DNA from: Verrucomicrobiota bacterium
GTDB lineage: Bacteria > Verrucomicrobiota > Verrucomicrobiia > Opitutales > Cerasicoccaceae
Assembly (NCBI GenBank): GCA_039818205.1
Contig: JBCBUK010000010.1
Location: forward strand, 1 to 64,000
Length of the DNA: 64,000 bases
Reading direction: 5' to 3'
Shown here in pieces: positions 5,137 through 34,364 of the stretch; the first letter of the stretch is position 1; every line of letters starts with the position of its first letter. A program made the translations under genes and the position numbers. The notes below the pieces were generated by a model. It did not search any database and had not been told where the DNA came from. It worked only from the letters and a program-made list of their open reading frames with translations.

Positions 5137-5417
5137 ATCGATTAGCCGGAATCAAGCGGCTTTTAAGGGAGCCAGTCTCATATTTGAGCGGGCGATCAAG
5201 CGGTTGAACCTGGTTAATAACGACTCCATGATGTCTGGGTTAGCCAGCTACTGAGATGTGATGACCCACACCGGTTTATCCGATGTTACTGATGACATTC
5301 AACAAAACTAATGGCTTTTGTTTTGTCTCAATACAGAGAATTTGTCGATCTTGATGAAGGATAAACGATGATCCTTTCTGTTGTCCGAAATCGATTATTT
5401 TGGATAGTGTTTATCGC

Positions 5418-5675
5418 ATGAAACTGGGATTGATTGGTGATGCGCGGAGCCGCAACGCCCGCGTCGTGGCAAGGGCGCAAAATCGAAATGAGGTAGGCGG
5501 TCAAAACACCCTCCTGGTATCACTCTTATTTATGAGTGTTGGATCCTGCGTCACGTTTTTGGCAATTCAAACGTGGACGCTTGGATATCAACTAACCCTC
5601 GTTAGCGGGCTCGTTGGATTGAGCTGCGGTTTCTTTGGGCTGATGCGCTACGTTCTCGATTCTGCGGATTCGTAA
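5418..5675 (+). CDS. Small two-TM hypothetical membrane protein
   Basis: Two hydrophobic segments in the C-terminal half; no recognisable family. Confidence 0.45.
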   Translation: MKLGLIGDARSRNARVVARAQNRNEVGGQNTLLVSLLFMSVGSCVTFLAIQTWTLGYQLTLVSGLVGLSCGFFGLMRYVLDSADS

Positions 5676-5769
5676 TCTCACCTGAGGTAACAACCACGTG
5701 TCGGATCGTTTTTGGCAAGGAATCTTGCCGGAAATACTCTTCATGATACCCTATAGAAACCACTCTGTA

Positions 5770-5990
5770 ACGGGGGTGGAACAATATGGTGGTAACTACG
5801 GGCATAAATGCGAATAACCTACGACTTACCGACATGTTATTTCTTGTTCTTTCTTGCACTCAGACTTATTCCCGATCAATGTACGATGCAACTTGTTTGT
5901 CGATAGGCAGTTACAGGCTTGTTACGCTCATTCGCCGACCATAATAGGGAATAGTTACTTTATAAAAATATTTTCTTAATACTCTAACGT
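5770..5990. other. Candidate replication origin (oriC-like) upstream of dnaN
   Basis: Non-coding. Degenerate DnaA-box-like 9-mers at 5775, 5787, 5799 and 5809 (TGCGAATAA), opposite-orientation TTACCGACA (5826) and TTATTCCCG (5866), then an AT-rich tract at about 5941-5987. No perfect TTATCCACA. Confidence 0.4.
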
Positions 5991-6026
5991 TGCCAGTAAG
6001 TCACAAACTGGCCACTTTTCTCCCCA

Positions 6027-7154
6027 ATGAAGTTCAAGATTCACCGTGATCATTTCGCAACTGGCCTGCAACAGGTCCTGAACGTGGTCGGCTCTCGTGC
6101 CACGATGCCAATTCTCAGCAATGTCTTGATTCAAGCCGAGGGCAATCAGTTGTCGCTCACCACCACGAATCTCGATCTCGGTATCCGGTGCCGCATCCAG
6201 GCCGAGGTAGAGGCACCAGGCGGTATCACCTTGCCGGTTAGGAAGTTGGCAACAATTGTCCGGGCGCTTCCAAACTCCGAAGTGGAAGTCGATGCGACTT
6301 CCGGCAATCAGGCGAAAATCACCAGTGGCGGATCTCTTTTCCGCATGATGGGCATCAGTGAAGAGGAGTTTCCTCCCCTGCCCTCATTTGCGGACCAGCA
6401 CATTTTTAACCTGAAGCAAGATGCGTTGTCCGGGATGCTCAAGAGCGTTTCCTACGCTCAAAGTAAGGACGAAAACCGCTACATCCTCAACGGGGTATAT
6501 TTCATCTTCAATGACAATGCCATGAGCCTTGTCGCGACCGACGGTCGTCGCTTGGCTCTCTGCAGTCAGGAACTGGAAGTGGCCGAAGATAATGCTGGCC
6601 AGTTGATTTTGCCGGCAAAGACCGTCGATGAACTTCAGCGCCTGCTTGGTCAGGGTGAGGATGTGAAAATTACTTTTAGCGATCGCCAGGTGGCTTTCGA
6701 AATCCAGATCGCAGATAGCGATGATGGCGGTCTCGTGGATTCAATTTATCTGGTCTCGAAAATCGTCGAAGGCAACTATCCGAACTACAAGCAAGTCATT
6801 CCCAAGGAGACGGAAAATCGCATCAAGATCGAGCGTGAGTTGCTGGCTGAGTGTGTCCAACGGGCGGCGCTGGTAACCAGCGACAAAAACAACTCGGTCA
6901 AACTGAAGCTAAGCGGCAATCTGCTTGAAATCACCGGCTCCTCGCCGGAGTACGGTGAGTCGCACGAGTCGATGGCAATCAGCTATGAGGGTAGCGAAGT
7001 AACCGTGGCTTTTAATCCTCAGTTCCTCCTGGATCCCCTCAAAGCCTTGGCACAGGACGAAGTTTACTTTGAGTTCAAAGACGAGCTTTCCCCTGGCGTT
7101 TTTAAGACTTTGGACAGCTTTCTTTGTGTAATCATGCCCTTGCGCCTGAATTAG
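6027..7154 (+). CDS. dnaN: DNA polymerase III beta sliding clamp
   Basis: MKFKI...[10 protein letters not shown]...TTNLDLGI...VATDGRRLA...[11 protein letters not shown]...VIMPLRL; 375 aa. Confidence 0.98.
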
Positions 7155-28481: not shown

Positions 28482-29558
28482 ATGGCCGCAAAGAAATCCG
28501 CCGCAAAGGCATCCGCTGACAAACGTGACGACAAAGCACTCGACCTCGCAATCTCCGCGATCAACAAGCAGTTTGGCGATGGCGCCATCATGAAGCTGGG
28601 CGAGGCAGCCAAGAAGAACATCGATGTTATTTCGACGGGCTCGGTCGCATTGGATTTGGCGCTCGGTGTTGGTGGCCTCCCCCGTGGTCGGATTTGCGAG
28701 ATCTATGGCCCGGAATCTTCGGGTAAAACGACCTTCTGTTTGAGCGTCATTGCCGAGGCTCAGCGCAAAGGTGGCAACGCGGTGTTCGTCGACGTCGAGC
28801 ACGCGCTCGACCCGCGTTATGCAAAGATCGTCGGAGTCGACTTGGAAAATCTCATGGTGGCGCAGCCAGAATCGGGCGAAGATGCCTTGAACATCACTGA
28901 GACACTCATCCGCTCGGGTGCGGTGGATATCATCGTTGTCGACTCGGTAGCGGCTTTGGTCTCCAAGAATGAGCTCGATGGCCAGTTTGGGGATTCGACC
29001 GTCGGTCTGCAGGCACGGATGATGAGTCAGGCGATGCGCCGATTGACGGCCGCGATTAACCGCTCTCATTGCATTGCTCTCTTTACAAACCAGATCCGGG
29101 AAAAGATCGGTGTTATGTTCGGCAGCCCAGAGACCACACCAGGCGGTCGTGCGTTGAAGTTCTTCTCGTCGGTGCGGATGGACATTCGTCGGATCGGCCA
29201 GATAAAGTCAACCGACGGAACGGTTATTGGTAACCGCACGCGCCTCAAGGTCGTGAAGAACAAGGTCGCCCCACCCTTCACCGAGTGTGAGTTCGACATC
29301 ATGTATAATGAAGGGATTTCCAAGACTGGCTCAGTCCTCGACCTCGGCCTGGAGCACAAGCTTCTGGAGAAAAAGGGTGCTTGGATCAGCTACAAGGGCG
29401 ATCTCATTGGCCAAGGTCGCGAGAACGCCAAAGAATACCTTGGCCAACATCCCGAGGTCATGGAGGAGATCACCAGTACGATTCTGGGTAATGTCGAAGT
29501 CCATGGTGGAGATAGTGTTGGCTCTGTTGACGACGATGGCGACGACAAGGATGCATAG
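28482..29558 (+). CDS. recA: Recombinase A
   Basis: [54 protein letters not shown]. Confidence 0.99.
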
Positions 29559-29656
29559 TTCTTTTGCCCCTTTTGGGGGCTTCCGTTCACATTTGTGAAT
29601 GTTTTGTCATAGAATTATCCTTGCCATTTGGCCCTGAATACCTAACATATTCAGGC

Positions 29657-29962
29657 ATGAGCAGCGTCGCCAGCAAGCACCCCTTCCCCGTTGTATCGCG
29701 AGAAAGTGACGTGATACTCCCGGTGCTGCTTGCGCCCAGCCTTTACGTGATCACTAGCTATGCGGTGTTTTGGGGAAGCGGTAGCGTGCTACTGCAGTCG
29801 CCAAACATTATTCTCCTGGTCGGGCTGCTCTCAGTTTTGGTCGGTGCGCGGATGATCTTTCGCCGCAATAGCTCCGAGCCGCGTGACCGTCAGATTTGCT
29901 CGTTCATTGCGCTGGTGATGCTGATCTATCTCCAGCTGCTGTTGCCCCGTTTGTGGGGTTGA
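29657..29962 (+). CDS. Small 3-TM membrane protein
   Basis: Hydrophobic 101 aa. Promoter-like TTGCCA(29621)-16bp-TAACAT(29643) just upstream. Confidence 0.6.
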   Translation: MSSVASKHPFPVVSRESDVILPVLLAPSLYVITSYAVFWGSGSVLLQSPNIILLVGLLSVLVGARMIFRRNSSEPRDRQICSFIALVMLIYLQLLLPRLWG

Positions 29963-30041
29963 GGCAGCTCATTGCTGATCGGTTGGGACTTGCACGCTTT
30001 TTGGCGTGAGTTCTTGGCGCAGGGTGCTTTAATGCCCGCCC

Positions 30042-31400
30042 ATGCCAATGGGAGAAACAATTGTGGCACCTGCCACTCCTTTCGGAGAATCAGCGCTTGC
30101 CGTCGTGCGGGTGTCGGGTCCGTTGTCGGCTGAGTTGGCCAGTAGCTGCTTGAGCGAGAAGCTGGTTGACCGGCCGCGCGAGACGTGCCTGCATGCGTAT
30201 CGAGCCCTCGATGGTTCCGTGCTAGACCATTGTTTGGGGGTCTATTTCTCCGACAAACGAAGCTACACGGGTGAATCCTCACTCGAGCTTTCGCTGCACG
30301 GCAACCCCCTGATTGTCCAGCGGGTGACCGAGGACCTCCTTGCGCGAGGTTGCCGAATGGCCGAACCTGGTGAATTTACGCGCACTGCTTTTCTGAACGG
30401 AAAACTGGACCTGAGCCAGGCAGAAGCCGTCACCGATTTGATCTCGGCGCGTAGTGAGCAGGCTCTGGAAGTCGCTCAGCGACAGCTCGAAGGCTCGGTT
30501 GGTCGGAAGATGGCTGAGTTATCTGATCAATTGCTGGGTGTGATCGCTGCGGTCGAGGCTTACATTGATTTCCCAGAGGAAGACCTTCCACCCGAGGATG
30601 AAGCCGGCCCGGCTGCGTCCTTAGCTGCCCTATCGGCCGAGTTGAATGAGCTGATCGAAACCAGCCATTATAAGACCTTGCTGCACGAGGGCATCAAGAC
30701 GGTGATTATGGGTGAGCCCAATGCTGGTAAAAGCAGTTTGCTCAACGCCCTCATGGGTGAAGATCGCGCGCTGGTGTGCGAGGAACCCGGAACAACCCGC
30801 GATTTCCTTACGGAGCGAGTCATGGTGGGAAAGTATGGCCTCCAGTTGATCGATACCGCCGGCTTGCGGGAAACGGAAGCAGATCTGGAACGTCAGGGCA
30901 TTGCCAAAACACTTTCACAGGTAAAGGCCGCGGACTTTCTGCTGGTGGTGATTGACCGGTCGGTTCCCCCACCCCACTTCCCCGATGAGATTGCTGATCG
31001 CCTGCATGAGCGCCGGGTACTCGTGGTGGAGAACAAAATCGACCTACCGGCCGACGCCGGTAGTGCTCAGGTTTTGCCTGAGCATCCCCGCATCGCTGTG
31101 TCTCTCTTGCAGGGACAGGGCCTAGCGGAGCTCCGCATGAAGATCCAGGAAACCCTTGAAGCCGATCGGATAGTGCCAGCGGCAGATGAGTTGATGGTTT
31201 CAGCGCGCCATGCGAATGCATTGAAACAAGCACGGGAAGCAATCGACGAAGCGCGCCAGCGTTTGCGGGATGATGAGGCGGCTGAGCTCGTTGCTGCCGG
31301 ATTGCGAGATGCGCTGGCCTGCGTTGGCGAAGTGATTGGGAAAGTCGATAATGAAGAGATGCTTGATAAGCTCTTTGCGTCGTTTTGTATTGGGAAATGA
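30042..31400 (+). CDS. mnmE: tRNA modification GTPase MnmE
   Basis: [66 protein letters not shown]. Confidence 0.98.
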
Positions 31401-33328
31401 AGTCTCCGCTCAAATTTGGTCCAAACGCTCCTTACGATGTTATTGTTTGCGGAGCGGGTCACGCTGGTGTCGAAGCCGCCTTGGCTGCGGCGCGACGTGG
31501 AGCCGATACGCTTCTGTTGACGGGAAACGTCGATACGATCGGCCAGATGAGCTGCAATCCCGCGATTGGGGGCCAAGCTAAGGGCCATATGGTGCGGGAG
31601 ATTGACGCGCTCGGCGGCGAGATGGGGATCAACACCGATACCACGGCGATCCAGTTTCGTCTATTGAATGCGTCGAAGGGCCCCGCAGTCCAGGCGCCGC
31701 GAGCTCAATGCGATAAAAAGGCCTACCAGTTCCGGCTGAAGCATTCCGTAGAGCTCCAGGAGAATCTGACGCTGTTTCAAGCGATGGTTGAGGGGCTGAT
31801 TTTTGAGAGCGGCTCAGTCAAAGGCGTGAATACGAGTTTTGGCATTGAATTCTACGGTAAGTCCGTCGTCGTAACCACCGGCACTTTTTTGCGAGGCCTG
31901 ATGCATATCGGGCAGAAACGCAACGAAGGGGGCCGATTGGGCGACTTTTCGGCCAAAGGGCTCTCGGGGAGTTTCCTGGAGGCGGGGATAGAGCTGGAGC
32001 GCCTGAAGACGGGAACTCCGCCCCGCATCCTTGGTTCGAGTATCGATCTGTCGAAGTGTGAGCGGCAGGCCGGGGATGAAAAGCCAACCTTGTTTGCGTT
32101 TTACGATACGCGGTTCGGCAAATCATTGTTCCACGTGGAACAATCGGATTTGGCGGAAGAGGAGCGGGCGGCATTGTTCCACGTGGAACATGAGGGTCAG
32201 GAGAAGCTGGGCTGGTGGCCAGGAACGGATCAGGTGTGCTGCTGGACGAGCCAGACGACTGTGGCGACGGGTCAAGTCGTGCGCGACAATCTTCATCGGT
32301 CCGCTCTCTATGGGGGTGAGATCGAGGGAGTGGGGCCGCGGTATTGTCCGAGTATCGAAGATAAATACGTGAAGTTTGCCGATAAGCCGACGCACAAGGT
32401 GTTTCTTGAGCCGGAGGGCCGGAACACCGATGAGTGGTATGTCAACGGCATCAGCACGAGTTTGCCGTTCGATGTGCAGCTGGATATGCTGCGCAGTATT
32501 GAAGGTTTGGAGAATGTGGCGATGCTGCGACCGGCCTACGCGGTGGAGTATGACTTTGCACCGCCAACGCAGCTATTCCCGTCGTTGGAATCGAAACGGG
32601 TGGAGAATCTATTTTTTGCGGGGCAGATTAATGGGACGTCTGGCTACGAAGAGGCCGCCGCTCAAGGACTCATCGCTGGCGTAAATGCGGTGGCAAAGGT
32701 CCGAGAGGAGGAGCCGTTGGTGATCGGTCGGGACGAAGCTTATGCTGGGGTTCTGGTGGATGACCTGGTGACGAAGGGAACCAGTGAGCCGTATCGGATG
32801 TTTACCAGCCGAGCTGAGCACCGCTTGATCTTTAATCACGGCAGTGCGGAGATTCGTTTGTTTGAGCACGTTGAGCGGTTTGGCTTGGTGGATGATCAGC
32901 GGATGGCGCGCATGCGTGAGAAGGTGAGGGCGGTTAAGCATTGGACGGCTGAGTTGGAGCGGATTCGTATCCGCGGAGGATTGGCGGGAGATGTAATCCG
33001 TAAGGCGAAGGATTTGGCTGAGGTTGAGTTGGTGCCCAACTTCGAAGCACAGGCGGAGGCGGTTCGCGCTGAGGTGCTTTATCGCGTCCGCTACAAAGGC
33101 TATCTTGACCGGGAGGAGAAGCATATCGCGCGATTGCGGAATTTGGAGAAAGTTAAGATCCCGCAAGGCTTGGATTTCCTTAACATGCGAGGGCTACGGA
33201 AGGAGAGTGCGGTAAAGTTGAATGAGATCCAACCGCGAACACTCGCGCAGGCGAGCCGGATTAGTGGCGTGAATCCAGCGGATATTAGTTTGCTTCTGGT
33301 GGCTCTGCAGACGCGTGAGGGCTCCTAG
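31397..33328 (+). CDS. mnmG: tRNA uridine-5-carboxymethylaminomethyl synthesis enzyme MnmG (GidA)
   Basis: [68 protein letters not shown] overlaps the mnmE TGA (ATGA). Confidence 0.98.
32127..32142. other. parS: parS centromere-like site 1 (inside mnmG)
   Basis: Perfect TGTTCCACGTGGAACA, extending to the 20-bp palindrome ATTGTTCCACGTGGAACAAT (32125-32144). Matches the canonical chromosomal parS consensus TGTTNCACGTGAAACA/TGTTCCACGTGGAACA. Confidence 0.92.
32175..32190. other. parS: parS centromere-like site 2 (inside mnmG)
   Basis: Second perfect TGTTCCACGTGGAACA, starting 48 bp after the first. Confidence 0.92.
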
Positions 33329-33482
33329 GCGATCACTCGTTTGCACTTTGAGGTGCCTCCCGTTAGCCAGCAATCTGGCTTCGATTTTTGATATTGAAGA
33401 GGCGATTTGGCTTTGATGGCGGTGCGCAGTTTCGGATTCGCTAGTCGATTTTAGCTTCCGAAACGGTGGGTCGGATCGTGCT

Positions 33483-33515
33483 TGTTACAGAAGTGAAACG
33501 CTTGTGTTACGTAGA
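33483..33515 (+). promoter_or_regulatory. Pho-box-like 11-bp-period direct repeats upstream of the response regulator
   Basis: TGTTAC (33483), TGAAAC (33494) and TGTTAC (33505) at exact 11-bp spacing, typical of OmpR/PhoB-family sites. Confidence 0.4.
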
Positions 33516-33659
33516 TTTTTCCTGGCGAGAATAGGGACATAAGTTACTGAATGATAGCATCTTAACTAAATTTTGATAAGGGAATATGTCAAAATTGATG
33601 GCAATCGTAACTTTCATGATTGGCGTGCGTGAAGAATTTGGCGTAGTTCTTGGCATGCT

Positions 33660-34364
33660 ATGACTCAAGATGGTGGAAAACGGATTCTCGTAGTTGATGA
33701 CGAACCAGATGTTACCGAGCTGGTTGAATACAAACTTCGCCAAGCAGGCTATCAAGTCGCTACGATTAACGATCCCCTGTTGATTATGGGCACGGCGCGG
33801 GAGTTCCAACCCGATCTGGTAATCTTGGATATCATGATGCCCGAGCTGAGTGGGATTCAAATTTGCCGGATGTTGCGGGCGGACCCGAGTATGTGTAAGA
33901 TCCCTATCGTTTTCTTAACCGCACGCGGTGAAGCTGAGGATCGAGTCAAAGGATTGGAGACTGGTGCCGACGATTACATCAGTAAGCCATTTGATTCCCG
34001 AGAGCTTCTCCTCCGGGTCACCGCAGTGCTTCGTCGTTTGGACCGTCCTAGCGGGGAGGAAGGTGGTAGCACCTTGACGATTTCTAATGTGGTTCTCGAT
34101 GTTGAGAAGCACCGTCTGACTTTGGCGGGAAGCCCGGTCGAACTCACCGCGACTGAATTCAAGCTCCTTCGATTGCTGATGGAGCGCAAAGGCCGAGTGC
34201 AGAGCCGCGAACACCTTCTCGTTAACGTCTGGAACTATGAAGCGGACATCGAAACGCGGACCGTCGATACTCATATTCGTCGTTTGCGCGAAAAGTTGGG
34301 TGAGGAGTCCAATATTATTGAGACGGTTCGTGGCGTTGGTTACCGGGCAGTCGATGCTAATTAA
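33660..34364 (+). CDS. phoB: OmpR/PhoB-family response regulator (PhoB/PhoP-like)
   Basis: ILVVDDE, LDIMMP, FLTARGEAEDRVKGLETGADDYISKPF, LTATEFKLL, RTVDTHIRRLREKL, ETVRGVGY. Confidence 0.85.
   Translation: MTQDGGKRILVVDDEPDVTELVEYKLRQAGYQVATINDPLLIMGTAREFQPDLVILDIMMPELSGIQICRMLRADPSMCKIPIVFLTARGEAEDRVKGLETGADDYISKPFDSRELLLRVTAVLRRLDRPSGEEGGSTLTISNVVLDVEKHRLTLAGSPVELTATEFKLLRLLMERKGRVQSREHLLVNVWNYEADIETRTVDTHIRRLREKLGEESNIIETVRGVGYRAVDAN

Follow-up and report, generated by a model that had tools for sequence, protein, structure and literature searches.

The mnmG locus and its parS pair

The window analyzed here is a 64-kb stretch of the genome under study (G000; 4.85 Mb assembly, 99.97% complete). 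It contains an intact mnmG gene, and two copies of a palindrome matching parS lie within the reading frame of that gene. The features of the locus are:

30042..31400, + strand: mnmE (trmE), directly 5' of mnmG.
31397..33328, + strand: mnmG (gidA), intact, with a likely ATG start that overlaps the mnmE stop.
32093..32242, + strand: expanded MnmG loop FAF...QVCC, residues 232-281 counted from 31400.
32127..32142, no strand: parS copy 1, a 16-bp palindrome within a perfect 20-bp palindrome (32125-32144), read (L)FHVEQ.
32143..32174, + strand: spacer separating the parS copies, with 8% amino-acid identity to 11 relatives of equal loop length.
32175..32190, no strand: parS copy 2, a 16-bp palindrome, read (L)FHVEH.

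A sequence-only reading of this DNA had reported two perfect parS sites 48 bp apart, translated in frame as LFHVEQ and LFHVEH. The window sequence confirmed both copies of TGTTCCACGTGGAACA, at 32127-32142 and 32175-32190, and the mnmG translation confirmed the in-frame reading. Both sites match the parS consensus, a 16-bp palindrome. They were the only 2 matches in the 64-kb window allowing up to three mismatches, versus a mean of 0.26 in shuffled sequence. A scan of all 4.85 Mb for further parS returned these same 2 as exact copies, and allowing one mismatch added none; two unrelated loci joined them at two mismatches. Base composition predicts 0.001 exact copies in G000. A chance origin of the pair is ruled out by the window shuffle, the genome count, and this expectation, and assembly duplication is ruled out by spacers that differ among 10 genomes of the same family sharing the same 116-residue loop. 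Two copies 48 bp apart in a whole genome display the rarity and clustering typical of chromosomal parS. A promoter and terminator scan of 29500-33700 found no element inside the MnmG loop.

The expected rsmG-parA-parB neighbors were missing 3' of mnmG, as that reading had stated, and a PhoB-like/PhoR-like pair followed by trmB was found there instead. MnmG has 642 residues and scored 758 bits against NCBIfam TIGR00136 (cut-off 525). The predicted structure had an ordinary MnmG fold (pTM 0.90) and resembled Aquifex GidA 2zxh with a TM-score of 0.87-0.92 and a Foldseek E-value of 2e-66. The KTGT, RYCPS, and GQING motifs were invariant in 39 aligned MnmG proteins. The G000 protein is a full-length member of the known family (TIGR00136; PDB 2zxh, 3ces, 9hip); E. 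coli and Aquifex MnmG have 28-34 fewer residues in the loop that precedes the QxxC strand.

The 43 residues previously counted between FAF and QVCC were confirmed, as was the excess over E. coli MnmG, which is ~34 residues in solved structures (41 vs 7 between aligned ends); the same comparison gave ~28 residues over Aquifex MnmG. Throughout the phylum sample, the loop between KTGT and RYCPS ranged from 83 to 374 residues, versus ~82-88 in E. coli and Aquifex. Model confidence was lowered in the insert region (pLDDT <50 at residues 244-249; block means of 51, 66, and 66 over residues 241-270). The loop had been proposed to exist in order to carry a DNA signal. This holds for the insert from site to site, with its 8% identity, but not for the flanks, which are conserved as protein, with 81% identity ahead of the loop, 60% in the stretch following copy 2, and 71% further on, and which resemble in part the native Aquifex MnmG loop. 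We therefore infer that it is the insert, and not the entire 43-residue stretch, that carries the DNA signal only. In G016 and G056, a further break in the MnmG match near residue 540 hints at a second place of insertion in the protein.

Selection on the DNA word

We compared codon usage in 34 genomes with FHVE in the loop, one per family, over 256 conserved degenerate MnmG columns. Only the F, V, and E of FHVE showed a single codon in 34/34 genomes, and H did so in 33/34. The modal share was 0.45 in the median column and 0.875 in the highest-ranking column outside FHVE. Residues flanking FHVE (L, M, or V before; Q or H after) were those that the palindrome ends permit.

A census of 117 mnmG loops drawn from the order and the phylum contained 137 sites, read in all three frames, with 117, 15, and 5 sites for FHVE, CSTWN, and VPRGT. 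There were 25 loops with no copy, 50 with one, 39 with two, and three with three. Five or six copies were counted in four further loops, including those of G180, G241, and G238, and four copies in G229 and G235. Both expectations raised for MnmG orthologs, suppressed synonymous variation at FHVE and variable copy number, were thus borne out. Because the FHVE columns are fixed to single codons and the site is read in three frames, selection evidently acts on the DNA word and not on the FHVE peptide.

The commonest start-to-start spacing in the phylum sample was 48 bp (19/45 site pairs). Its recurrence across distant families may be inherited from an ancestor or reflect a spacing that ParB prefers. 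On each side of the site, A or T was the preferred flanking base in the 117 loops.

ParB, ParA, and partner genes

G000 encodes one ParB (contig C9), a stand-alone Soj-like ParA of 261 aa with a KGGVGKTT motif (contig C8), and scpB (contig C4), while dnaA is on contig C19; parB, parA, and dnaA are therefore on three contigs other than that of mnmG. The linkage of parS to parA-parB that is usual, though not required, was absent from G000, and no parS was found beside its parB. Complete genomes of relatives had parB 0.3-2 Mb from mnmG.

ParB residues are given in Caulobacter ParB numbering, counted by spacing along the helix-turn-helix. The single G000 ParB, the presence of which was a point on which the earlier proposal could have failed, has the parS-type set Q162, G170, R173, N178, T179, A184, and G201, as well as the arginine patch GERRWRA. 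It carries the RTAG set and not the Q173/K179/K184/R201 of the Noc type. Against TIGR04285 it scored 230, under the cut-off of 315.

Co-occurrence of the loop site with ParB

In a first set from the order (61 genomes, 57 loops parsed), the site was in the loop of 48/50 ParB-positive genomes (47 within one mismatch) vs 1/7 ParB-negative genomes. The six ParB-negative genomes without the site were 0.8-1.0 Mb in size, and their loops had lost FHVE while mnmG was kept. One genome parsed separately from the 57 loops (G026) has the site, another (G007) has two sites by coordinates, and G004 and G040 were without the mnmG loop region. For the phylum we picked 60 loops by family from a draw of 151 genomes and counted sites within two mismatches, which gave 43/48 ParB-positive vs 1/12 ParB-negative genomes; ten of the ParB-negative loops were 85-90 residues long, near the E. 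coli and Aquifex length. Genome-wide, a parS match occurred in 92/99 ParB-positive vs 5/52 ParB-negative genomes of the same draw, although all of these ParB and site counts include kin that are not independent and overstate the number of events. The seven ParB-positive misses comprised three genomes with a variant site, two with two-mismatch loop sites, and two without mnmG in the assembly. When 30 ParB-negative genomes were searched with Pfam, 6 gave weak ParB-domain matches, at E-values of 5e-11 or weaker.

ParB was present without a loop site in G018, G057, G243, and five genomes of family f43. G057 has two sites 5' of its mnmG. Conversely, G028 and G199 have the site and no ParB was found in them, both being draft assemblies (160 and 60 contigs).

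The loop site had decayed in four f43 genomes (G119, G133, G107, and G142; L283, L284, L286, and L333), and the same four carried a perfect in-frame parS later in mnmG, ~330 codons after KTGT. The loop of the 0.9 Mb genome G145 (L290), which is without ParB, preserved the remains of a site, decayed by two mismatches and read FHVKQ, as if the genome were in the middle of losing it. Searches for chromosomal ParB and for parS came up empty throughout families f48, f55, f65, f69, and f75, which have genomes of 2-5.5 Mb, and scpB was likewise not found in G065, the one genome tested from the families without ParB and parS. G043 contained 28 scattered one-mismatch relatives of parS on many contigs with the center CACCTG/CAGGTG, probably a different repeat or regulator site.

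Covariation of the site with the ParB recognition helix

In the order of G129 (61 genomes), 60 ParBs were found, and position 178 was read in 47. A variant palindrome, TGTGCCACGTGGCACA, occurred in 6/61 genomes, always in the mnmG loop, and none of the six had an exact canonical copy. These were G129, G124, G235, G097, G222, and G230 (loci L316, L356, L404, L313, L421, and L422, respectively; ParB L342-L344, L375, L408, and L409). The same six genomes have H178 in ParB, and the other 41/47 ParBs read have asparagine. The six H178 proteins form two separate clades, and a single clade was rejected (p-AU 5e-5) in a 24-row tree from which G067 and 29 other rows were left out. G067 itself has a ParB with H178; mnmG was not found, and two one-mismatch matches lie outside mnmG, so it is neutral for covariation.

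The ParBs of two further genomes, G229 and G238, have Q162Y, S172K, T179L, and R181G. Their loops, 175 residues in G229 (L405, ParB L378) and 310 residues in G238 (L406, ParB L377), contain four and six copies, respectively, of GTTTCCACGTGGAAAC. Neither genome has a copy outside the loop, and the palindrome was found in no other of the 61. Its half-sites appear two bases further apart. From these sequences, the site changed together with its reader ParB in what we count as three events, which gives indirect support to the predicted reading of the loop site by ParB.

Position relative to the replication origin

In two complete genomes the sites were close to the GC-skew minimum: in G008 the minimum was at 1,060-1,067 kb and the sites at 1,039.6 kb, about 20-28 kb apart, and in G031 the minimum was at 2,293.7 kb and the sites at ~2,274 kb, ~19 kb apart. 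The skew switch also brackets the mnmG sites in G009 and G052, more loosely than in G008 and G031. Skew sampling was too noisy in G046. The 0.88 Mb genome G018, which keeps ParB, has its skew switch at ~445-470 kb and two perfect sites at 460212 and 461271. Its mnmG, at 250 kb, is ~200 kb from the switch and has no site, and its dnaN is likewise 200 kb away. In this test set by nature, the sites have gone with the origin and not with mnmG.

Two features of the window bear on the origin of G000 itself:

6027..7154, + strand: dnaN, a context marker without dnaA beside it.
5140..6026, no strand: candidate replication origin, the 0.9 kb intergenic region before dnaN, inferred from relatives only.

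In G000, contig C10 is G-rich throughout, skew is weakly positive over the first 6 kb of the window, and no minus-to-plus skew switch was found inside any of the 25 contigs of at least 30 kb. No DnaA-box cluster was found in G000, G008, or G031. We rejected dnaA as an origin marker: in four complete genomes it lies 0.35-1.8 Mb from mnmG and off the skew switch. A dnaN homologue is at the GC-skew minimum in both G008 and G031, which points to an origin near 5,140-6,026 of the window; this candidate is ~26 kb from the parS pair, and local skew gives no confirmation of it. Among 13 genomes checked, dnaN was 2-68 kb from mnmG in 12 and 185 kb away in G052. It was also rejected as a marker for G000: it fits G008 and G031 but is off the switch in G018 and G052, and so leaves the G000 origin unplaced.

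Range beyond the order

A collection scan for parS 5' of the RYCP codons listed 120 matches of an estimated ~1,700. Of the 120 listed, 113 were MnmG, and the 7 that were not were dropped. The scan pattern selects for the feature, and the matches therefore show its range and not its frequency. Among the matches listed, most titles were from Opitutales, other Verrucomicrobiia, or Kiritimatiellia; one of them was Pontiella sulfatireligans, whose loop (L184) holds two sites spaced by 48 bp. The same mnmG segment carried in-frame sites at other positions, among the matches listed, in Vicinamibacterales of the Acidobacteriota (Vicinamibacterales-type L150, L162, L180, L183, L187, and L238), Sphingopyxis (Sphingopyxis-type L154, L175, L198, L243, and L258), and one Bacteroidales record (L244). 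Since site positions differ within the shared segment, separate gains are likely, and parS in the mnmG of other phyla is likely to reflect repeated independent recruitment.

Discussion

The two mnmG palindromes are very probably the chromosomal centromere of G000, with binding by ParB predicted. They are unique in the genome, in frame, and fixed as DNA; their counterparts track ParB across genomes, are close to the origin in relatives, and covary with the ParB helix. The original proposal of a dual-coded centromere in mnmG is supported, as neither the codon comparison nor the ParB search refuted it.

Other readings start from the same locus. ParB bound within mnmG could mainly regulate transcription of mnmG or of the phoB/phoR-like pair instead of serving segregation. 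The sites do lie inside a transcribed gene, the order mnmE-mnmG-phoB-phoR-trmB is common to G000 and G008, and ParB proteins acting on transcription have been reported (in the available portions of PMC4010829 and PMC3909081). However, G000 would then have no other parS-like sites to act as a centromere, phoB/phoR are not 3' of mnmG in G031, and in G018 the sites have stayed with the origin and not with mnmG; we consider a mainly regulatory role very unlikely. The reader could also be another DNA-binding protein of the origin region, as the two genomes with a site and no detected ParB might suggest. Both of these are drafts, the site matches parS and not the Noc site (NBS), which is told apart by its bases at positions 1 and 6, and it changed with the ParB helix three times, which makes a different reader extremely improbable.

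The remaining two explanations place the function in the gene product. Pairing of copy 1 with copy 2 as an mRNA stem might tune the translation or stability of mnmG, and the 101-nt stretch does fold into a long stem (-41.3 kcal/mol, z -4.5). Such pairing is expected of any two copies of a palindrome, though, and single-copy loops are the commonest kind (50/117). The central bases, which a hairpin formed by one copy would leave in its loop, vary as little as its arms, and an RNA stem would leave the loss of the site with ParB and its change with the ParB helix unexplained. We give this explanation almost no weight. Equally hard to credit is FHVE(H/Q) as a functional MnmG peptide motif with the palindrome as its by-product. 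In its favor, the order set almost always has FHVE at one position and in one frame, and frame 1 accounts for 117/137 sites. Against it, FHVE showed no synonymous variation across 34 families, 20/137 sites read CSTWN or VPRGT (including copy 1 of G006 and G011, from the same family), E. coli and Aquifex MnmG do without FHVE, and ParB-negative genomes lose FHVE yet keep mnmG.

Under the centromere reading, ParB would load at the parS pair in the cell, CTP-dependent ParB clamps would spread from it, and ParA and SMC-ScpAB would be recruited via ParB for segregation of the origin region. The parS may have been gained by an ancestor common to much of the phylum, in a length-tolerant loop of an origin-proximal mnmG. 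Later, parA, parB, and dnaA would have moved far off while the site stayed with mnmG, and extra copies would have arisen by in-frame duplication or insertion, with MnmG tolerating whichever peptide resulted (FHVE, CSTWN, or VPRGT by frame).

ParB, parS, and intragenic parS are already known. The G000 site is identical to parS2 and parS3 of P. aeruginosa, which are origin-proximal and the highest-affinity ParB sites in that organism. According to the available sections of that study (PMC4368675), a single origin-proximal parS suffices for segregation, nine of ten predicted parS are most likely in coding sequence, and parAB is ~7 kb from oriC. In P. aeruginosa the sites overlap ordinary coding sequence, belong to a set of ten, and have parAB near oriC, whereas those of G000 are its sole sites, are in an added, expandable loop kept across the phylum, and are unlinked from parA, parB, and dnaA. 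In C. glutamicum, parS1 is in coding sequence and nine of ten sites are intergenic; unlike the G000 loop, an in-frame insertion is not described for that cluster in the available part of the report (PMC7083940). A Hi-C study that included Akkermansia mapped parS clusters, with no gene context in the portion available, and indicated that dnaA need not mark the origin (PMC10197239).

For ParB itself, the closest comparison is Caulobacter ParB vs Noc-NBS. In the accessible text of that work (PMC7383237), the recognition helix is the same as in G000 ParB, with R173, T179, A184, and G201 and the contacts Q162, G170, and N178 in common. That text covers the switch from ParB to Noc, whereas the switches described here are within ParB itself and involve other contact positions and other site changes: N178H, and Q162Y with S172K, T179L, and R181G, unlike the Caulobacter ParB-to-Noc positions. 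In the literature searched, we came across no description of a parS within mnmG or of the ParB-site variants reported here; the Livny 2007 survey and supplements may list such sites.

On balance we favor a broader interpretation. In much of the Verrucomicrobiota, the centromere would be a translated array, able to expand, within a single essential enzyme and unlinked from parA, parB, and dnaA. The array, in a constant loop, would record natural switches in ParB specificity: N178H, arising independently on two occasions, would change each half-site at its third base, and the Q162Y/R181G ParB would read half-sites separated by two additional bases. Such pairs of ParB and parS would be new and orthogonal, and the same mnmG segment would have been recruited separately in Vicinamibacterales and Sphingopyxis.

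The locus offers a clean case in which, across a phylum, a DNA-binding site dictates and lengthens part of a conserved enzyme. The same locus marks the likely centromere and origin region for a phylum where dnaA is often far from the origin. Variation in parS number and clustering is listed as an open question in section 13 of a review seen in part (PMC7333895), and parS copy number can now be compared at one homologous place. The three matched ParB-site pairs make natural shifts in ParB specificity approachable.
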